NCBI GenBank assembly: GCA_045649265.1 | Contig: JAZRPO010000006.1 | Coordinates: 245 to 64,244 of the forward strand | Source of the DNA: Eubacteriales bacterium | GTDB lineage: Bacteria; Bacillota; Clostridia; Oscillospirales; JAAYXM01 | Length of the DNA stretch: 64,000 nt | Direction of reading: 5' to 3' | Part shown: one piece after another, positions 4,395 to 12,902 of the stretch | How positions within the stretch are numbered: position 1 is the stretch's first letter | Layout of the letters: each line of letters begins with the position of its first letter | Made by a program: the position numbers and the translations under genes | The notes under the pieces: model-generated | Databases searched by the model: none | Told to the model about the DNA's origin: nothing | What the model saw: the letters and a program-made list of their open reading frames with translations, nothing else

Positions 4395-5510
4395 GTGAAA
4401 AGTATTATTAAGTCCTTTTTTATACTCATTGCATTCCTTTTAATTTTGAATTTTCATTGCGAAGCGATTGAAATTTCTGCAAAATCGGCAATTTTATATG
4501 AGCCGGAAACCTCTACAGTTCTTTTTGAAAAAAACAGTTTAAATAAACGAGAGATTGCCTCTACGACGAAAATTATGACTGCGGTGGTAGTTCTTGAAAA
4601 CGCAGATTTGGATGATATCGTAACCGTGCCGGCTGCGTGTGTCGGTATTGAAGGAACATCAATGTATCTGAAAGAGGGAGAAAAACTAACTGTATCTGAT
4701 TTGCTTTATGGTATGCTTCTTCATTCAGGCAACGATTCGGCAACAGTTCTTGCACATTATGTTGGAAAAGGGGATATAGAGAACTTTATTGATATGATGA
4801 ATAAGTGTGCAAATTCTATCGGAATGGAAAACACCCATTTTAAAAATCCGAGCGGGCTTCCTGACAAAGAACATTATTCAACAGCTTCCGATATGGCAAA
4901 GCTTGCAGCATATGCAATGAAAATTCCTGAATTCCGTGAAATTGTTTCCACTAAAACAAAGACAGTTGCAGGAAGAACACTAACAAATCACAATAAGCTC
5001 TTGCGAATTTATAATGGCGCAAACGGCTTGAAAACCGGTTATACCAAAGCAGCGGGAAGATGTCTTGTTTCAGGCGCAAATCGAAACGGAATGCAGCTTA
5101 TAGCCGTGACACTTTCCGCCCCGGATGATTGGAATGACCATAAGAAGCTTTTTGACTTTGGCTTTAATAATTTTTCCGTTTATAAAGATACGTTAAAGGA
5201 CGAAGAGCCATTTGAAATCTCAGTTGTCGGAGGCAGTTCTCCGGAAGTTCTCGCTCAAATTGCATGTGATGTTTCGATTTTGGAAAAAGGATCTGAAAAA
5301 GTAGAAAAGATAATCTATCTTCCTCGATTTATCTATGCCCCTGTTTTTGAGGGAGATGTGGTGGGTAGGGTAGAGTATATCATTAATGGCAAAATTGCCG
5401 AATCTGCACCCATTGTGAGCTGTGACAACGTTAAAGAAAAGGCGTCTTCCGGATTTTTAAAAAAAACAATCTACTTTTTTAAAAAAATTGTATCGTTTTG
5501 CACTGCATAA
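4395..5510 (+). CDS. D-alanyl-D-alanine carboxypeptidase (serine peptidase S11, PBP5/DacB-like)
   Basis: A signal peptide is followed by SxxK (ASTTKIMT), SxN (HSGND) and KTG (LKTGYT) in the canonical order. GTG start follows GGGGG. Confidence 0.85.
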   Translation: MKSIIKSFFILIAFLLILNFHCEAIEISAKSAILYEPETSTVLFEKNSLNKREIASTTKIMTAVVVLENADLDDIVTVPAACVGIEGTSMYLKEGEKLTVSDLLYGMLLHSGNDSATVLAHYVGKGDIENFIDMMNKCANSIGMENTHFKNPSGLPDKEHYSTASDMAKLAAYAMKIPEFREIVSTKTKTVAGRTLTNHNKLLRIYNGANGLKTGYTKAAGRCLVSGANRNGMQLIAVTLSAPDDWNDHKKLFDFGFNNFSVYKDTLKDEEPFEISVVGGSSPEVLAQIACDVSILEKGSEKVEKIIYLPRFIYAPVFEGDVVGRVEYIINGKIAESAPIVSCDNVKEKASSGFLKKTIYFFKKIVSFCTA

Positions 5511-5619
5511 TGAATGAATTTATGTTTATTTTCAAATGGGGATAGAAAACTTTTATTGCGTCCGAATATTTTAATCACAACCGGCTAAAAATATAATTAG
5601 AATTTTTTATATTTTTTTC

Positions 5620-5648
5620 TTGACTTTTCCAAGATAGTCGATTATAAT
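5620..5648 (+). promoter_or_regulatory. Sigma-70-type promoter for tRNA-Gln
   Basis: TTGACT (5620-5625), a 17-nt spacer, then TATAAT (5643-5648), about 12 nt before the tRNA 5-prime end. Confidence 0.6.
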
Positions 5649-5660
5649 ATAGAAGTTCGT

Positions 5661-5734
5661 TGCCGGATTGTGTAAGGGTAGCACGACAGACTCTGACTCT
5701 GTTTGTCTGGGTTCAAATCCTAGTCCGGCAGCCA
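5661..5734 (+). tRNA. tRNA-Gln (anticodon CUG)
   Basis: Hand-folded cloverleaf. Acceptor TGCCGGA pairs with TCCGGCA (U1:A72, typical of bacterial tRNA-Gln). Anticodon stem ACAGA/TCTGT carries loop CTCTGAC, giving CTG. GGTTCAAATCC T-loop and encoded CCA are present. Confidence 0.85.
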
Positions 5735-5737
5735 AAA

Positions 5738-5770
5738 ATCGACAAGGTTCGTAAGAATCTTGTCGATTTT
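5738..5770 (+). terminator. Intrinsic terminator after tRNA-Gln
   Basis: ATCGACAAG (5738-5746) pairs with CTTGTCGAT (5759-5767), with an inner TTC/GAA extension, followed by TTTT. Confidence 0.7.
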
Positions 5771-5863
5771 ACTTATTACCTATTCACTATTCACTTTTCC
5801 CTAAAATGACTTGTCGATTTTTGGAAAGCAATAGGGAATAGTGAATAAGGAAGAAGTGAAGGC

Positions 5864-5891
5864 AGCTTTGCTTACGCAAAGCTTATTTTTA
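5864..5891 (+). terminator. Second intrinsic terminator-like hairpin in the tRNA-Gln / nuclease spacer
   Basis: AGCTTTGC (5864-5871), loop TTAC, GCAAAGCT (5876-5883), then TATTTTTA. There is no U-tract in the opposite orientation. Confidence 0.5.
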
Positions 5892-5920
5892 TATGCAGCC
5901 ATATTGTTCTGTGTTTTGTT

Positions 5921-5949
5921 TTGATTTTTTGAGATAGGTATGCTATAAT
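5921..5949 (+). promoter_or_regulatory. Sigma-70-type promoter (extended -10) of the 512-aa nuclease gene
   Basis: TTGATT (5921-5926), a 17-nt spacer, then TGcTATAAT (-10 at 5944-5949). A GAGGTGG RBS lies 6 nt before the ATG at 5969. Confidence 0.6.
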
Positions 5950-5968
5950 TATGTTGAGGTGGTAAAGT

Positions 5969-7507
5969 ATGGATTTTATTAAATTTGTTGAACAAATTCC
6001 CAATATTACAATAGCAAAACGAGTTGCCTCTGCGTATGTTGCTGATTATAGACGATTAGAACTCGACGAGATTAAGGTGTTTTTGAAGAAAACAACTAAA
6101 CAGTATACATCATTTGAGAATGTAAGCAATAGATTAGACGAGATTAAACTTGATTCAAATCGTGCTGTCAGAATAATTGCACCAATATTATTGCGTGACT
6201 ATTTATTAAATCAGGATGATTTTATTTCGTCTACTAGAGATACTGATTCTGCGGTTTTGAACTATGAAAAGGCTATTGTTGATGAATCAAACAATTTTGA
6301 TGAAAGCAAGATATCAAAAGATTTCGCGTTATTCAAACATATGATAGACGCTGCATGGGCACATAATGACGATATTTCGGTTGATGAGAAGAATTTGTTG
6401 GAAACTCTAAGAAAGTATTTGTCAATCTCTATTAAAGAGTTCCATATGCTTGAAGCTAAATCGAGAAGATTTCCGACCTTTGGTAATGTTTTGCATACAT
6501 ATGATGATATAGAAGATGCGAGAAAAGTGTTGCAGGCAAAAGGTTTGATTGTAGCCATAAAGAATTCCGACGGAGTTATTTGTGATATGATTCCTAGTGA
6601 TATTGCGCGATGCATCAGAAAGTATTACAGTATTGAAATACGCGCATATGGTTATGAAAAACTTGTTGATTATGTTATAAAGAAGACAAAGAAACAATAT
6701 CTTATTGATATTGTGAATAAGGCAAGTCAATATTTTTCGAAAGCTAAAATTGAAATATCAAATAATCCTACTGTAAATGAATTGAAAGATATTATTTTAA
6801 AATCTATACAGCCTTCTAATTTGATTGGCGGTTTTTCACCGAGAGATGGACTTGATGTAGCAATGTTGTCAGCTTGGTGCGGAGATATTGGTTTGAATGT
6901 GTCAGGAAATAAAGTTACGCTGATTGAGCGAATACTTGAATATTATGATTCAATGAGAAAAATAGAAATCAAGACGCAAGATGAAAGAGAAAAGCTTGTT
7001 GCATATTACAGTCAACTTGCAAGCAGAGATTTGAAAAATTTGAGAGCGAATAATATCATTGAAAAAGATTTACAATGCGAACACTTTTTTGAGGATGCAA
7101 CGAATTTCTTGTTTGAAAAAATGTTGCTTAATAAACCGCTAACTTTGACTGGTTCTGAACACCCGGATGGCAAGTTGTCTTTTAAAGACAAGTATATTAT
7201 GTGGGATAACAAATCAAAGGAAACTGCAGTGAATTTAAAGGATCATATTCAGCAGTTTGAACGATACATAAAGACATCGGATAAAGAAGTGGTGGTATTT
7301 ATGGTCATAGCTCCAGACTTTACACCACAAAGCGTTCAAGAGTGCGTTGATTTTTCTTTGAATAACGATACCCAAATTTTATTGATTACTGCCGAAGAAT
7401 TAAAAACAGTTGCAGAGACTTGGGCGAAAAAACATCCTGGGGAAATCTTTAATTTAGGATATTTTAAACAAAACGGAAGATTTGATATAAAGTTGTTAAA
7501 TCTGTGA
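5969..7507 (+). CDS. Orphan SAP/HeH-motif protein with a C-terminal FokI-type (PD-(D/E)xK) nuclease domain; candidate stand-alone defence/restriction-like nuclease
   Basis: 512-aa ORF with its own promoter, RBS and terminator. Residues about 294-326 (LDVAMLSAWCGDIGLNVSGNKVTLIERILEYY) are SAP-like. Residues about 365-512 parallel the FokI cleavage domain block by block: EHFFEDATNFLFEKM.../GSEHPDGKLS/YIMWDNKSK/IQQFERYI/VVVFMVIAPDF/ILLITAEEL/FKQNGRFD. The gene is AT-rich relative to its neighbours on spot counts. Confidence 0.6.
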   Translation: MDFIKFVEQIPNITIAKRVASAYVADYRRLELDEIKVFLKKTTKQYTSFENVSNRLDEIKLDSNRAVRIIAPILLRDYLLNQDDFISSTRDTDSAVLNYEKAIVDESNNFDESKISKDFALFKHMIDAAWAHNDDISVDEKNLLETLRKYLSISIKEFHMLEAKSRRFPTFGNVLHTYDDIEDARKVLQAKGLIVAIKNSDGVICDMIPSDIARCIRKYYSIEIRAYGYEKLVDYVIKKTKKQYLIDIVNKASQYFSKAKIEISNNPTVNELKDIILKSIQPSNLIGGFSPRDGLDVAMLSAWCGDIGLNVSGNKVTLIERILEYYDSMRKIEIKTQDEREKLVAYYSQLASRDLKNLRANNIIEKDLQCEHFFEDATNFLFEKMLLNKPLTLTGSEHPDGKLSFKDKYIMWDNKSKETAVNLKDHIQQFERYIKTSDKEVVVFMVIAPDFTPQSVQECVDFSLNNDTQILLITAEELKTVAETWAKKHPGEIFNLGYFKQNGRFDIKLLNL

Positions 7508-7614
7508 TAATGGAGGAGCATCGCTATAAATTTCTGTTAAGGTCTTCGATATGTTTGCTTTGCGGAAACGAGATTTATATCATATTGAGGTTTGAGTGAA
7601 ACGAATTTGCCAAG

Positions 7615-7648
7615 AAAAAAACGACTTGTTTCGACAAGTCGTTTTTTT
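7615..7648. terminator. Bidirectional intrinsic terminator between the convergent nuclease gene and the M20 hydrolase gene
   Basis: An A-run precedes ACGACTTGT (7621-7629), loop TTCG, ACAAGTCGT (7634-7642), followed by a T-run (7643-7648). Confidence 0.75.
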
Positions 7649-7727
7649 AGTTATATTTGGTTCATGCAAGTGATATTGTGTTTGGTACAGTGTACCATTG
7701 CTTGGATTGCGGCGACAAAAAAGGGTT

Positions 7728-9050
7728 TTATTTCAGCAAATCGTAGGTCATGCCGCAAAAAACCTTAACAGACTTGGTTAAATAACTTTCGTCAAAGTCA
7801 AAATTGCTGTGGTGAGCTTTAGCTGCGAGCGGACTGCGCACGCGCATGAATGAACCCTGGCCGCCGTGGCTCTGCACGCGGTTTATCATATAGGAGAAGT
7901 CTTCACTGCCGCCGAGCTTGACGGTGAGATTCTTTGAAACCTTCATGCCAAGCTTGTTTGCGCACACATCTGCGATGCGCTCGCACAACTGCAGATCACT
8001 GTTCAAAGATTCTGCAGCGCCCATAAGTTTCACTTCCACAGTACAGTCGTGCATTGCTGCCGAGTTCTCCAAAATGCGCATAGCATAATCGTTTACATAC
8101 TCATTAATGGCTGTGGTATCACCACGCACTTCCATTTCCATAAATGCTTCGTCTGCAATAACGTTGCGACCGCTGCCTGCAATGAGCCTGCCGACGTTAA
8201 TTCGGGTTGCTCCTGCAGAATGCCTGGGGATTGCATAGAGATTCATTACGGCGCCTGCTGCAGCAAGCAACGCGTTTTTACCCAATTGGGGGTTTCCACT
8301 GGCATGAGATGCCTTACCACGAAAGGTAACGTCGTACTTGAATGAAGCGAGCGAACCGAAAGAGCCTGGAGTAATATCGCTATCATCAATACCAGTATCG
8401 GTAGTGTGGCTTGCTAATAAATAGTCAACATGATCCAAATGCCCTGCGCCAACGATTGACTTTGCACCACGGACACCCTCCTCGCTGGGCTGGAAAATCA
8501 GTTTGACCGTGCCGTGCAGATGTTCCTTAATTTGCATAAGCACTTTGGCAACACCCAGACCTGAAGCGGCATGGCCGTCGTGGCCGCAGGCGTGCATAGC
8601 ACCGGCATTCACAGAGGCAAAGCCCTCCTTTGCAGGGATATGGTCATCTTCCATAGACTCATTAACTCCGAGTGCGTCAATATCAAAGCGCATCGCAACC
8701 GTGGGGCCCTCACCGCAACGAAGGATTCCGATCACGCCTGTAAACCCCCCTTCGGTTGCTTTGACAAACTCCGGATCTGCGCCCTGCTCAATAGCGCGGG
8801 CATAACACTTTGTGAGCATCTGATGCGAAGGTACGCCCATACGCTCGTCCTTCTTACACACATCTTGACCGACAACGACTTCGTATCCAAGTTGCGTAAG
8901 TTTTCTTGCAATAATGGATGATGTACGCATTTCCAGCCAGCCTGTTTCTGCGTGTTTGTGGAAATCGCGGCGCAAATCAATCATCTCAGGAGTCACAGCT
9001 TCGGCCTTTTCAACAATGGTCTGATAGATATTCATAATAACCCTCTCCAT
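7728..9050 (-). CDS. M20-family amidohydrolase / metallopeptidase (AbgA/hippurate hydrolase-like)
   Basis: 440 aa. MHACGHDGH metal-binding motif, FQPSEEG, and an M20 dimerisation-domain pattern are present. Confidence 0.75.
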   Translation of the reverse strand: MERVIMNIYQTIVEKAEAVTPEMIDLRRDFHKHAETGWLEMRTSSIIARKLTQLGYEVVVGQDVCKKDERMGVPSHQMLTKCYARAIEQGADPEFVKATEGGFTGVIGILRCGEGPTVAMRFDIDALGVNESMEDDHIPAKEGFASVNAGAMHACGHDGHAASGLGVAKVLMQIKEHLHGTVKLIFQPSEEGVRGAKSIVGAGHLDHVDYLLASHTTDTGIDDSDITPGSFGSLASFKYDVTFRGKASHASGNPQLGKNALLAAAGAVMNLYAIPRHSAGATRINVGRLIAGSGRNVIADEAFMEMEVRGDTTAINEYVNDYAMRILENSAAMHDCTVEVKLMGAAESLNSDLQLCERIADVCANKLGMKVSKNLTVKLGGSEDFSYMINRVQSHGGQGSFMRVRSPLAAKAHHSNFDFDESYLTKSVKVFCGMTYDLLK

Positions 9051-9086
9051 ACTTCGTGGTTGTTTTGCTATTTTGTGTTCAATTTA

Positions 9087-10382
9087 TTAAAAGCGGATAT
9101 AACCTACACCATCGACAATTTCAATCTCCGTTCCGTACGGTTTGGAGAGCTCTGCCAGGTATTTGAGCGTAGCTTCGCTCTTGTTCATTACCGGGCGACC
9201 CTTCTGGGATCTGGATTTTTCCATGTTAAGGGTTACGGGGTAAAGCTGGACTTCGGTAATTTTGCCGTCTTCCATAGTCCATGCCGCCATAACGGAGTTC
9301 CATATCTCAGGCAATGTGCCGTATCCCGCAGTTCCGTTCTTACTGCGAAGGTCCATATATTCGCCAACCTTCATTTCAGGGCTGTAGCCTTTATTGACAT
9401 AAGCATCCCAGGGTTGATATTCGACGGTTTCCGTTTCAAATATGTAATTGCCGATAGAATAGAATATCAAACCGTCCTTATATCTCTCGATGCCCTGAAG
9501 TTCATGGGGACCGTGTCCGATAATGACATCTGCACCTGCATCGATGCAGTTATGTGCAAATGTCTCAATGAATTGTGAAGGAAGGTTAGTCTGTCTTTCG
9601 TCGTAGTAGTGGCTATGGATGCTTACCAAAACAATATCGGCCTGTTTTTTCGCTTCCTTGATTCGCTTGACCATACGTTCCATGTCTCCTGCATGGGGAA
9701 CAGATTCCACCCAGCATCGGTCGTCAAGAATAAAGCGGCTGGAACCGAAGGGGAACTGCCCTTCCGGATAGGGTGCAGAGTAGCCGAGTGCAATGCTGCG
9801 CTCAGCAGACGCATTGATTTTGGTGATTTCTGCAAGCTCTTGAACCATATCAAAATGAGATTTATCCACATGGAATCGTTTCAGACAACGCATTGGGTTT
9901 GCACCGGGACGTCCGGGAAGGTCCTCGGTCTGAGCACCCGCACGGGCAGAATCGTTCGAGGAGGAATTGCATGCGAGCATAGCAACGCGAGCATGTTTTG
10001 TTTCTATATAGCACGCCTTAGAGGCATCGCCCAGGTCCTTGCCAGTACCGGCAAAGATCATATCCCGCTTTTTCAGATGTTCAATTGTGGCAAGCACACC
10101 ACTCTGGCTATAATCACAGGAATGGTTGTTGGCTGTGTTGAAAATGTTAAAGCCATATTCTTTCATATCGTCAAGAATGCGGGGGTCGGACATGGCCCAT
10201 GTACCACCGCTGGTGGCTGACGGAATACCCTCACGGTCGTGAAATGTGCTTTCCAAATTCAAAAATGCGACATCGTGTGCTTTTACGCAGGCCTGCACTT
10301 CATCAAACCCCTCATAACCGCCCTTGGGAAGGCGTTTTGTGGCGAATGCATCGCCTGCTGCGATAAATGTTGTTTTTGCCAT
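9087..10382 (-). CDS. CapA-family protein (metallophosphatase fold, poly-gamma-glutamate capsule synthesis-like)
   Basis: FIAAGD...NLES...ANNHSCDY...SIHSHYY...GHGPHELQGIE is the typical CapA/PGA_cap order of motifs. I prefer the ATG at 10382 (MAKTTFIAAGD), which has an AAAGAGG RBS, over the ORF-track start at 10430. Confidence 0.75.
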   Translation of the reverse strand: MAKTTFIAAGDAFATKRLPKGGYEGFDEVQACVKAHDVAFLNLESTFHDREGIPSATSGGTWAMSDPRILDDMKEYGFNIFNTANNHSCDYSQSGVLATIEHLKKRDMIFAGTGKDLGDASKACYIETKHARVAMLACNSSSNDSARAGAQTEDLPGRPGANPMRCLKRFHVDKSHFDMVQELAEITKINASAERSIALGYSAPYPEGQFPFGSSRFILDDRCWVESVPHAGDMERMVKRIKEAKKQADIVLVSIHSHYYDERQTNLPSQFIETFAHNCIDAGADVIIGHGPHELQGIERYKDGLIFYSIGNYIFETETVEYQPWDAYVNKGYSPEMKVGEYMDLRSKNGTAGYGTLPEIWNSVMAAWTMEDGKITEVQLYPVTLNMEKSRSQKGRPVMNKSEATLKYLAELSKPYGTEIEIVDGVGYIRF

Positions 10383-10550
10383 AACATAATACCTCTTTCG
10401 TTTATAATGATCGTATATAAAACTATTCACTTCAATTTGAAAAAACTTAATAAAATGCTGAATAATTATAAATTAAAACATGAAATTTGTCAACGCAAAG
10501 GGAGCTTTTTGCGACAGCAACAATATAACTTAAAGTATGTTTAATGTGTT

Positions 10551-11576
10551 TTACTTATCGGTTTCTTTGTAATTTGAAAGGGGATTTGCTTTAGCGGCTG
10601 TGCGAAGAGTTTCACTATCGGCATGAGTGTAAATCTCGGTTGTGTTCAAATGCTCATGGCCGAGAACCTCCTGAACAGCCTTGACATCAACACCGTTTTT
10701 ATACATAAGTGTTGCAGATGTGTGCCGGAGTTTATGAACTGATATCTTTGAATCAAGCCCTGCAAAGGTGCAATATTTCTTTACAAGCCATTTGACGGTT
10801 GATGTGCTAATTCTGTTACCATTTCTGCTTATAAATAGCGCTTTTTCGTCTTTTTGACGAATTTTTGAAATTTTTGAACGTTCTTCTAGGTACGCAGAAA
10901 TTGCATTTTGTGTAGCATCATTAAGATAAACAACACGTTCTTTTTGGCCTTTACCGATAACTCTGAGAGTTTCTTCTTTAATGTCGCCAATATTTATTCC
11001 ACAAAGCTCTGAAACACGCAAGCCACAGTTCAAAAACAGCATTACAATGCAGAAATCGCGGGTTTTATATTCGCCCTGAATATTTTCAAGAAGCCTAACA
11101 CTTTCGTCATATGTAAGGTAATGCGGAAGCTTTGTGCGGCTTTTTGGAAATTCAAGCTCTGCCATGGGATTTTCTGAAATTCTGCCGGTTTTCTGCAAAT
11201 ACTTATAAAAGGTACGTAAAGATGAAACTTTGCGGGCTCTGGCAGCGGGAGAGAGCCCATAGTCGGAATAGGAGCTGTTATGAAACTTTTTTCGCTCTGT
11301 GGACAGATAATCAAAATATTCATAAACATCCGTGATTTTAATTCTTTTAATAAAATCAATATCGATATCTGAAATTTCTATATGATTAATTCCAGTTTCT
11401 TCAGAAAACTTATCCATACCAAAAACTATTTTAACATATTTAAAAAAGGTTCTTAAATCCAAAAGATATTCATTGATTGTTCCTTCGGATTTATCATTAA
11501 TTGTATGCATATAATTTGCAAATTCACGAACAAGCGCCGGCATCTTATTTAAATCTTCACGCTTCATTAAAAACAC
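10551..11576 (-). CDS. Tyrosine site-specific recombinase, XerC/XerD-like
   Basis: An N-terminal SAM-like core-binding domain is present. The catalytic set is in order: R (GLRVSEL), HKLRHT, GHEHLNTT, IYTH. It cannot be decided from sequence alone whether it is the chromosomal dif recombinase or an island integrase. Confidence 0.8.
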   Translation of the reverse strand: MFLMKREDLNKMPALVREFANYMHTINDKSEGTINEYLLDLRTFFKYVKIVFGMDKFSEETGINHIEISDIDIDFIKRIKITDVYEYFDYLSTERKKFHNSSYSDYGLSPAARARKVSSLRTFYKYLQKTGRISENPMAELEFPKSRTKLPHYLTYDESVRLLENIQGEYKTRDFCIVMLFLNCGLRVSELCGINIGDIKEETLRVIGKGQKERVVYLNDATQNAISAYLEERSKISKIRQKDEKALFISRNGNRISTSTVKWLVKKYCTFAGLDSKISVHKLRHTSATLMYKNGVDVKAVQEVLGHEHLNTTEIYTHADSETLRTAAKANPLSNYKETDK

Positions 11577-11632
11577 CGCTTTTCCTTAATATATTATTAT
11601 AATAGCACATACAGCGCCGTAATTCAATACCC

Positions 11633-11666
11633 CGAATTGAACAAAATTTTTATTTTGTTCAATTCG
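11633..11666. repeat. Perfect 15-bp inverted repeat (4-nt loop) upstream of the recombinase gene
   Basis: CGAATTGAACAAAAT (11633-11647), TTTT, ATTTTGTTCAATTCG (11652-11666). Neither side has a flanking U-tract. Related AATTCAA/TTGAATC half-site-like words occur at about 11621 and about 11674. Confidence 0.7.
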
Positions 11667-11717
11667 AGATGCGTTGAATCGAACAATATATTTAAGCCCC
11701 CCACTCTCAATTCCTGT

Positions 11718-12902
11718 TTAATTTCTTCGCAAAGCCTTTATCGGATCCAGACGCGCAGCTTTTATTGCCGGTAAAATTGAAAACACAATTCCAAACAAAA
11801 CAGAGACTCCTTCAGAAACCAACAATGTTATTAAATTAAATTCATATTTTAGTTTTAATAGATTTGAAATTACATTTCCTAAGAATATTCCGATTCCTGC
11901 TCCTAACAATCCTCCTGATAAAGAGATTAAAATTGCTTCAGTAAGAAAACAAATTAAAATATCCTGAAACCTCGCCCCTATTGCCATACAAACCCCAATT
12001 TCCCTTCTGCGCTCTGTACAAGAGGAAAACATTGAATTCATTATACCTATTCCTGCAACGCACAATGCAATGCTTGCTATTGCCGTAATTACTAATGAAA
12101 TCAGACCTGTTATCGAGCTTATTTCTTCCATTTGTGATGAAACATTTTCTGCTGAAAAAACGTTTTCGCCCTTTATTTTATTTATATAATTTGCAAAATT
12201 TTCGCCATTATTAGCTTTTTTTGAAGATTTTATAGCGATTTGCGTGATTTCCATCGAATCTCTTATTTGATTCAGTGTTGTATACGGTAAATAAACAAAA
12301 TCTGGTATATTATTACCAAAAAGTTTATTAATACCGTCTTTTTGTGATTTTATAACGCCGATTATTTTGAATTTTTCACTTTTTCCGTTAATTTGAACAG
12401 AGATTTCTTTTCCGACAACATTCGTTCTTTTATATGTTTTCAGCGCTAATTCATCATCTATGATTGCAATGCGCTTATTTGCGCGAACTTCACTTTCGTT
12501 GGGAATTCTGCCATGAAGAATTTTCACATCATAAACAGAATCAGCCGCCCCCCCGACACCTAATAAAACAGTGTTTCCTTGTTGTTGATTCATTTTATAC
12601 GTTCCTATTTCAAGAACAACAGGGATGGCAGCTTCTATTTCACTGAATCTCTTTTTTAGTCTTTCGGCATCCTCTGCAACCAATATGCTTTCTCCTTTAC
12701 CTTCGCTTTTATATACGGTAAGCCCATCTAATCCAAGTTTTTTAAGCTCTCGTATAATTACAGCTTCACCGCTTGAGCCGATTGAAGAAACAAGCAAAAC
12801 GGAGGCTATGCCTATTGTTATGGAAAGCATCGTGAGCACAGTTCTCATTTTTCCTCTGAAAGCATTGATTGCCGATAATTTTAAAACATCAAAAAATAAC
12901 AT
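11718..12902 (-). CDS. ABC transporter permease, MacB/FtsX type
   Basis: 394 aa. An N-terminal TM is followed by a large extracytoplasmic domain and a C-terminal FtsX-like 3-TM bundle. The start overlaps the adaptor stop by 1 nt (TAATG). Confidence 0.8.
   Translation of the reverse strand: MLFFDVLKLSAINAFRGKMRTVLTMLSITIGIASVLLVSSIGSSGEAVIIRELKKLGLDGLTVYKSEGKGESILVAEDAERLKKRFSEIEAAIPVVLEIGTYKMNQQQGNTVLLGVGGAADSVYDVKILHGRIPNESEVRANKRIAIIDDELALKTYKRTNVVGKEISVQINGKSEKFKIIGVIKSQKDGINKLFGNNIPDFVYLPYTTLNQIRDSMEITQIAIKSSKKANNGENFANYINKIKGENVFSAENVSSQMEEISSITGLISLVITAIASIALCVAGIGIMNSMFSSCTERRREIGVCMAIGARFQDILICFLTEAILISLSGGLLGAGIGIFLGNVISNLLKLKYEFNLITLLVSEGVSVLFGIVFSILPAIKAARLDPIKALRRN

Follow-up and report, generated by a model that had tools for sequence, protein, structure and literature searches.

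A horizontally mobile single-gene family with SAP repeats and a FokI-type cleavage domain in gut Clostridia: a putative type IV-like restriction or defence nuclease

To our knowledge, FokI-type cleavage domains are known almost only from type IIS restriction systems protected by a methylase, and a gene that encodes such a domain with no methyltransferase partner raises the question of what its product acts on and to whose benefit. The gene considered here lies at positions 5969 to 7507, on the forward strand, of a 64,000-nucleotide stretch of an Eubacteriales bacterium genome (contig JAZRPO010000006.1, assembly GCA_045649265.1), referred to below as the window. Its coding sequence, supported by the open reading frame (ORF) call and by homologues, begins with ATG and encodes a protein of 512 amino acids (aa), which an initial annotation, made from the sequence alone, had read as an orphan nuclease with a SAP-like motif and a possible role in defence. 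This protein proves to be a member of a large family, spread over many phyla and devoid of functional annotation, that combines a FokI-type domain with SAP repeats and a confidently folded, unrecognisable N-terminal region.

The C-terminus of the protein (residues 365–512, positions 7061–7504, forward strand) is a FokI-type PD-(D/E)xK cleavage domain whose catalytic triad is intact, on three independent lines of evidence: Pfam matches in relatives, alignment with hhalign, and the modelled fold. The window protein itself matches the Pfam family FokI_cleav_dom (PF09254) over residues 367–437 with 13.9 bits (E=0.038), under the gathering score of 25 bits, and single-sequence searches of the PDB and NCBIfam with it gave nothing useful. 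The same family was matched in 15 of 46 relatives, with a best E of 9.3e-8 and two borderline cases among those listed (24.9 and 23.8 bits). In the hhalign alignment, D400, D413 and K415 (codons 7166–7168, 7205–7207 and 7211–7213, forward strand) are paired with D450, D467 and K469 of FokI, a numbering verified against the 1FOK and 2FOK structures. Across homologues as distant as 20% identity, these three residues are at least 90% conserved, in the set of 46 relatives as well as in a set of 78 diverse sequences, and the same holds for E375, Q429, F430 and Y433. The block-by-block alignment with FokI proposed in the initial annotation, and its choice of catalytic residues, are thereby borne out.

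The AlphaFold model built from the alignment of 78 homologues had a mean pLDDT of 92 and a pTM of 0.75; a shallow alignment of sequences 76–93% identical gave a pLDDT of 55. When the model was compared with the PDB by Foldseek, FokI ranked first (2fok/1fok, E=7.5e-7 to 1.5e-6, probability 1.00), the outcome expected from the earlier reading of the sequence, followed by the nickase Nt.BspD6I (E=1e-4), HindIII and the small catalytic subunit of R.BspD6I (2p14, TM 0.55 over 177 columns). Weak matches to RecU/Hjc-type resolvases were also obtained. The helix ‘QFERYI’ that follows the DxK motif aligns with the dimer-interface helix ‘MQRYV’ of FokI, and from this alignment the enzyme probably dimerises in a FokI-like manner via a conserved ‘QFxRYI’ helix.

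Upstream of the cleavage domain, a SAP domain (Pfam PF02037) was detected in the window protein at residues 297–326 (6857–6946, forward strand) with E=1.3e-6 and 28.3 bits, over the cut-off of 23.9 bits, and the same domain is present in each of 36 close relatives and in 28 of 46 diverse ones. This motif is regarded as mainly eukaryotic, and the SAP domains of Ku70, SIZ1, DEK and Tho1 are the profile matches in the PDB. The SAP-like motif that had been placed at about residues 294–326 is thus confirmed. The suspicion that a degenerate copy precedes it was also justified, as residues 261–290 (6749–6838, forward strand; helices 269–279 and 282–287) correspond to a first SAP/HeH repeat which is Pfam-significant in many diverse relatives and degenerate in the window protein.

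The remainder of the N-terminal half gave no significant match by Foldseek, profile search or search of a viral fold library. According to the confident AlphaFold model, residues 1–135 (5969–6373, forward strand) form an all-helical N-terminal domain, which is followed at residues 136–208 (6374–6592, forward strand) by three helices and a beta-hairpin (helices 138–150, 155–164 and 178–190, strands 195–198 and 204–207). This second unit takes in the boundary at the invariant P209 and an ‘IPEEIA’ motif, and it showed weak Foldseek matches to ArsR/MarR regulators. Its modelled secondary structure suggests a winged-helix-like, putative DNA-binding module. A vague likeness to TerB had been remarked on in the initial annotation. 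It finds sub-threshold support in 7 of 46 relatives (PF05099, residues ∼90–160, best E=1e-4, two of those listed scoring 17–18 bits) and none in the window protein, for which Pfam gave no TerB match (gathering score 24.4 bits).

The description of the protein as an orphan, in the sense of one without relatives, does not stand, since hundreds of homologues exist. A word-index search returned 507 matches, of which the best 120, all from Clostridia and Oscillospiraceae metagenome-assembled genomes (MAGs), are 512–529 aa long, nearly all exactly 512 aa, and 76–93% identical. An exhaustive profile search yielded at least 316 clusters at 50% identity, many of them of full length (500–610 aa). By genome scans, at least 159 species-representative genomes carry the family, mainly gut Oscillospirales and their relatives, together with Izemoplasma and Acholeplasmataceae, and some of these genomes have two copies of the gene. 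Pairs of paralogues 43–44% identical to the window protein were observed on separate contigs of one genome in Candidatus Izimoplasma sp. ZiA1 (L081/L082) and in CBFCWH01 (L083/L084). A distant subfamily occurs in Bacillaceae, Gemmatimonadota, Bacteroidota, Balneolaceae, Desulfobacterales, Campylobacterales, Aminicenantes and one CPR bacterium, and a cultured carrier is available in Salipaludibacillus keqinensis KQ-12 (WP_110608514.1).

Archaeal homologues of 546 aa, with 22–24% identity over 80–83% of the query, are annotated as hypothetical. One homologue, HrrHm1_140 of Halorubrum virus Humcor1 (L167:5659–7299), lies in the accessory region of this tailed haloarchaeal virus, and another is carried by the megaplasmid pNVE500 of Natrinema versiforme (L168:7635–9275), 3 kb from an integrase gene and 5 kb from that of an N-6 DNA methylase. 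Members of the family are publicly named ‘SAP domain-containing protein’ or ‘hypothetical protein’ and nothing else, and no description of a SAP–FokI-type nuclease family was found in the literature searched.

The gene is horizontally mobile as a single-gene cassette. Homology at the DNA level between species covers the gene, 30–65 nt upstream and ∼15 nt downstream, and nothing more, and no other gene of the window recurs near the nuclease gene elsewhere. The block scpA-scpB-ytfJ-dacB upstream of it is syntenic in 80 genomes, and in none of the 80 is the nuclease gene found there. The nearest relatives, in which ScpB is ∼86%, ScpA 79–84% and DacB 57–63% identical to the proteins of the window, have glg genes after dacB instead of the nuclease gene. 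One of them, gene-less locus L087, also has the tRNA-Gln gene that precedes the nuclease gene in the window (tRNA-Gln(ctg), 5661–5734, forward strand, predicted by ARAGORN) and shares its terminator hairpin (5735–5770, forward strand, an inverted repeat), with homology to the window ending at about 5775–5791. The nuclease gene is thus an insertion in the window genome, for which L087 provides the empty counterpart site. The prediction that homologues should be patchily distributed in variable loci, rather than sit in a conserved housekeeping neighbourhood, agrees with what was found, their loci being non-syntenic, and the refuting conditions set out in the initial annotation were not encountered.

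Base composition also sets the gene apart. At 58 of 58 close-family loci the gene has a higher AT content than the DNA on either side, with a mean GC content of 32.4% versus 43.3% and a difference of up to 23 points; in the low-GC Izemoplasma and Acholeplasma, its GC content equals that of the genome. In the genome of loci L004 and L006, the nuclease is 76% identical to that of the window, versus 48% for LysA and 65% for AsnRS; it is thus the better conserved protein where a comparison with housekeeping genes can be made. L010 (1–2391) has a unit of 2.24 kb that comprises the 3′ fragment of a tRNA gene (∼170–216), a palindromic leader and the nuclease gene with promoter and terminator. On both sides it is enclosed by copies of a duplicated sequence (1–154 and 2239–2391, 89–97% identity) whose length, at least 153 nt, is a lower bound because the contig begins inside the duplication. 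No second copy of the tRNA-Gln 3′ end was detected in the 64-kb window, and there is no integrase gene within the conserved unit. For the window, a classic tRNA-integrating genomic island was rejected on the lack of such a repeat and on a unit that holds the nuclease gene alone. An upstream module that seemed common to Bacillaceae loci and L071 was traced to a coincidence of coordinates and a duplicate assembly.

Where does the cassette land? Of 60 loci in the close family, 17 have a same-strand tRNA gene upstream of the nuclease gene at a distance of less than 700 nt, compared to 1 of 1,404 genes in control loci, an excess far too large to be explained by the non-independence of the loci or by the tRNA-poor control regions. 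Nine tRNA identities are involved, including that of the window (Gln, Met, Arg, Gly, Cys, Thr, Asn, Asp and Glu), and loci whose proteins are 93–94% identical follow different tRNA genes. The distance from tRNA to nuclease gene ranges from 96 to 686 nt, and in L009 the unit begins directly after the CCA of tRNA-Arg. A further 24 contigs stop within 1.5 kb upstream of the gene; where such ends can be read, they consist of 23S/5S rRNA (L052, L028 and L063) or a truncated tRNA (L022). Members of the more distant subfamilies are not adjacent to tRNA genes. Among the flanking elements, Rfam matched only tRNA, rRNA and one Gut-1 RNA (RF01706, 59 bits), which at L022 (107–175) is located between the truncated tRNA at the start of the contig and the nuclease gene.

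Repeated elements were noted around the cassette as well. In the window, a palindromic element of ∼93 nt (5768–5860, forward strand) starting with TTTTACTTATTACCTATTCACT and having 31-nt arms that are 81% complementary follows the tRNA-Gln gene. It recurs after tRNA-Met and tRNA-Cys (L008, L017 and L020) and at the unrelated loci L199, L205, L213 and L238. This element is present as a sole copy in the 64-kb window, yet is a dispersed intergenic repeat in other lineages of Clostridia, which suggests that the cassette arrived carrying intergenic DNA of its donor. In the closest clade, CATCTAAACCATTCGGCTCTTCCA is found 12–15 nt after the stop codon and, in three loci, also 97–99 nt before the start codon. 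In MAGs of Clostridia (Congzhengia, Ructibacterium and others), the corresponding 24-nt motif CATCTAAAYCATTCGRCTCTTCCA is located a few bases past the stop codon of numerous unrelated genes and in every case precedes a variable terminator hairpin, with more than 120 exact copies (L199–L318; for example L200:597–620, L212:300–323 and L212:3534–3557) and no Rfam family. It looks like a lineage-specific 3′-UTR or intergenic element, and no copy of CATCTAAACCATTCGGCTCTTCCA or CATCTAAAYCATTCGRCTCTTCCA was found in the window. The direct repeats of 24–36 nt that flank the gene in L008, L010 and L050 were considered as cassette ends of the att or IS200/IS605-like type and rejected, as only 3 of 120 copies adjoin the nuclease gene.

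The mobile gene is under strong and uniform purifying selection. Fifty genes of the close family align without a single gap, and the median ratio of nonsynonymous to synonymous substitution rates (dN/dS) in this family is 0.034 for the whole gene and 0.02–0.06 in every domain, so that constraint is equally strong on the recognition half and on the nuclease half. Such selection argues against a diversifying sequence specificity, and in the absence of diversification in the recognition half a conserved target is likely. It argues equally against a decaying form of the selfish or toxic gene that was among the options of the initial annotation.

The genes surrounding members of the family provide no partner. 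When 729 neighbouring ORFs were clustered, no family occurred in more than 9 of ∼80 loci, and no DNA methyltransferase was among the recurrent neighbour families within 3–6 kb in these ∼80 loci. Likewise, none was present among the recurrent Pfam families of 130 neighbours in the close family or at 4395–12902 in the window. The absence of a methyltransferase partner noted initially therefore holds for the loci compared; two of the loci, L004 and that of the Natrinema plasmid, have isolated DNA methyltransferase genes at a distance of 5–8 kb.

The 130 neighbours in the close family include a few WYL regulators, PDC-S02 and PD_DExK matches (PADLOC), as well as some DUF559 genes and integrase genes. 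In up to 6 loci (e.g. L021:16–417), the immediate upstream neighbour is a small gene for a four-helix-bundle protein of the 23S-rRNA-intervening-sequence type (PF05635), and DUF559 (Vsr-like endonuclease) genes lie downstream of it in 2–3 loci. In one lineage (L001–L003, region 8432–9877) the gene is preceded by that of a protein with SLFN_AlbA_2, HATPase_c_4 and Fic-like_C domains, and in L043 and three other loci by that of a WYL/WCX regulator; both are possible regulators or defence-associated neighbours. In the distant subfamilies, 135 neighbours include a retron/DRT reverse transcriptase, HEC-05, PD-Lambda-1, PD-T4-6, a GajB-like protein and mad2, some members also lie beside IS110 transposase genes, and the member at L170 lies beside AbiEii and a Panacea-domain protein. 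This association of distant subfamilies with defence or mobile genes is modest and suggestive only.

We propose, with about even chances of being right, that the protein is a putative type IV-like restriction or defence nuclease, Mrr-like in that it would depend on a modification or a structure of DNA. The front part, with its winged-helix-like module and two SAP/HeH repeats behind the helical domain, would position the enzyme on DNA, and the C-terminal FokI-type domain, with D400, D413 and K415, would cut, probably only after two molecules have paired. The nuclease would be expressed from its own conserved promoter in the absence of a methyltransferase partner, and its target would most likely be a conserved feature, for instance a modification of the DNA or a structure that it adopts, and not a sequence that varies. 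The cassette spreads horizontally as a single gene and, in gut Clostridia, usually sits just past a tRNA or rRNA operon, in its 3′ flank. Support for this proposal comes from the insertion of restriction genes with long duplications, whose structure resembles that of the L010 unit (PMC2853133).

Several observations weigh against the proposal. Most genes around close-family members have metabolic or housekeeping functions, and these surroundings are not defence islands. PADLOC-DB v2 gave zero matches for the window protein and only single weak ones for the 46 relatives. No known reader of modified bases (SRA, YTH, Mrr_N or DpnI-type) was found by Pfam, PDB profile or fold searches, and a dN/dS of ∼0.03 together with an invariant length is more typical of core than of defence genes. 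Of the interpretation given in the initial annotation, the stand-alone nuclease without a methylase thus stands, and the defence role, for which the PADLOC check returned no match, is plausible but unproven.

These same observations bear on another explanation, in our view rather unlikely, that the enzyme is an accessory nuclease of chromosome maintenance or repair which benefits the cell, and is not aimed at invaders, by acting on structures of host DNA where tRNA and rRNA loci are highly transcribed, for example on R-loops, stalled forks or recombination intermediates. Purifying selection of housekeeping grade throughout the protein, the fixed length of 512 aa, the conserved, constitutive-looking promoter and the mostly housekeeping neighbours would all fit such a role, as would the physical proximity of the gene to stable-RNA operons. 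The eukaryotic SAP domains matched here belong to repair and chromatin proteins (Ku70, PIAS/SIZ1 and Tho1), and the weak Foldseek matches to RecU/Hjc-type resolvases point in the same direction. A repair nuclease is at odds, however, with a patchy, non-syntenic distribution in which the nearest relatives lack the gene, with its foreign composition in every close-family host, with its carriage by an archaeal virus and a megaplasmid, and with restriction enzymes as its best structural matches.

The bias towards stable-RNA genes could also be taken as the signature of a selfish, self-homing cassette, whose enzyme breaks the DNA in, or close to, the 3′ flank of tRNA and rRNA genes, the nuclease gene then being copied into the break. 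FokI-type enzymes of type IIS systems cut at a distance from the site to which they bind. In a protein-guided form of this explanation, the winged-helix/SAP front end would recognise some conserved feature of stable-RNA genes or of their terminators, and the distant cut would favour insertion or retention of the cassette itself; in a variant, the nuclease would act on DNA structures at these loci. We regard homing as quite improbable, and the protein-guided form and its variant as no less so. It would account for the excess of same-strand tRNA genes, for the rRNA flanks of L028, L052 and L063, and for placement after at least nine tRNA species and 5S/23S rRNA; a single-gene unit with its own promoter, the start of the L009 unit right at the tRNA-Arg CCA, and the tRNA 3′ fragment inside the duplication-bracketed unit of L010 agree with it. 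Nevertheless, the distance between tRNA and nuclease gene varies widely, the flanking repeats are generic dispersed elements that seldom adjoin the gene, no tRNA-derived repeat is present in the window, and the distant subfamilies are not found beside tRNA genes. The low dN/dS suggests a benefit at the level of the host, and recombination anchored on conserved stable-RNA genes, or safe-harbour selection, can likewise produce the adjacency.

Finally, a classical sequence-specific type IIS enzyme with a protecting methyltransferase encoded elsewhere in the genome, for which the FokI-like layout, the rank of FokI and Nt.BspD6I as best structural matches over the whole chain and the isolated methyltransferase genes of L004 and the Natrinema plasmid might speak, is very improbable, given that no methyltransferase recurs nearby, that a lone mobile cassette whose enzyme cut a specific sequence would be lethal to a new host in which this sequence is unprotected, and that type II specificities normally diversify whereas this recognition half is as conserved as the nuclease.

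Within the window, the signals of the gene are those described in the initial annotation, including the ORF, promoter, ribosome-binding site (RBS), terminator and upstream tRNA-Gln gene. A sigma-70 promoter, TTGATT-17-TATAAT with a TG-extended −10 element, lies at 5921–5949 (forward strand; consensus scan and alignment of ten loci), and the RBS GAGGTGG, identified by reading the sequence, at 5956–5962 (forward strand). Promoter-like sites occur in the region at chance frequency (11 found versus 10.4 expected in the consensus scan). However, the −35 and −10 hexamers, the start codon and, nearly invariantly, the GAGGTGG sequence are kept across ten loci whose DNA further upstream is wholly different, and the promoter therefore belongs to the nuclease gene. 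The view of a self-contained gene is accordingly accurate, the conserved unit being promoter, RBS and gene alone. A terminator-like hairpin with a T-run was found by scanning between the tRNA and the promoter (5864–5883, forward strand). Downstream, a bidirectional intrinsic terminator (7615–7648, no strand assigned), whose 15-bp stem has an A-run on one side and a T-run on the other, serves both the nuclease gene and the convergent gene at 7728–9050, formerly described as a housekeeping-type hydrolase and here identified as an M20 peptidase; near-identical counterparts of this hairpin occur at the unrelated loci L221 and L228.

The gene upstream of the nuclease gene encodes the DacB-type carboxypeptidase. 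On the other side (7728–11576), the M20 peptidase and PGA_cap (CapA-like) genes have a GC content of 46–52%, compared to ∼35–40% in their surroundings, and are followed by a tyrosine recombinase gene at 10551–11576, 3 kb from the nuclease gene and outside the conserved unit. Synteny with the nearest relatives is lost at the tRNA-Gln gene, and the whole stretch past it may be a composite acquired region.

Although the gene moves on its own, its degree of conservation is that of a core gene. If the family does consist of modification- or structure-dependent restriction enzymes, it would represent a new class of single-gene defence or type IV systems, common in gut Clostridia. The FokI-type cleavage domain is the workhorse of engineered nucleases, and the family would then also offer a new natural DNA-targeting module for it. 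The integrase-free preference for tRNA and rRNA 3′ flanks constitutes a concrete and testable case of small cassettes finding safe landing sites or homing.

How does the family compare with known systems? Small units of restriction genes are known to insert without a transposase or integrase of their own, sometimes with a long target duplication or between repeats (Furuta, Abe and Kobayashi 2010, PMC2853133), and insertion with long target duplication was first described for type IIS systems (PMC2853133). The L010 unit resembles such insertions; the units described there carry both R and M genes, in contrast to the lone nuclease gene found here, and an integrase-free bias for tRNA/rRNA 3′ flanks was not described in that work.

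Nt.BspD6I/R.BspD6I (2EWF, 5LIZ and 2P14), the second-best group in the Foldseek comparison, has a FokI-type catalytic domain in common with the window protein, but is a heterodimer in a methyltransferase-protected type IIS system, whereas a single polypeptide without a partner gene is found here. FokI itself (1FOK/2FOK, PF09254) shares the C-terminal PD-(D/E)xK domain, with the PD...DxK triad in register, and the helix after the DxK motif at the dimer-interface position (‘ERYI’ here and ‘QRYV’ in FokI), and likewise has an N-terminal helical and winged-helix-type DNA-binding region, of which the winged helix is putative in the window protein. The window nuclease differs from FokI in having no cognate methyltransferase, in its marginal sequence similarity, in a hairpin of 13 instead of 17 residues between the catalytic aspartates, and in a recognition region made of SAP/HeH repeats together with a helical domain, without detectable resemblance to domains D1–D3 of FokI.

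Mrr-type type IV enzymes have an N-terminal winged helix and a C-terminal PD-(D/E)xK domain and lack a methyltransferase. The nuclease described here has the same organisation in being encoded by a single gene without a methylase, with an N-terminal DNA-binding module and a C-terminal PD-(D/E)xK domain, and is horizontally mobile as they are; phage Mrr-like domains were among its weak viral fold matches, none of which was significant. It is set apart from the Mrr type by the lack of Mrr_N and Mrr_cat matches in Pfam, by the FokI subtype of its nuclease and by its SAP repeats. With the eukaryotic SAP proteins (Ku70, PIAS/SIZ1, DEK, Tho1 and SAF-A), finally, it shares the helix-extension-helix DNA-binding motif; those proteins are non-catalytic factors of chromatin and repair, whereas the SAP motif is here fused to a prokaryotic nuclease domain.

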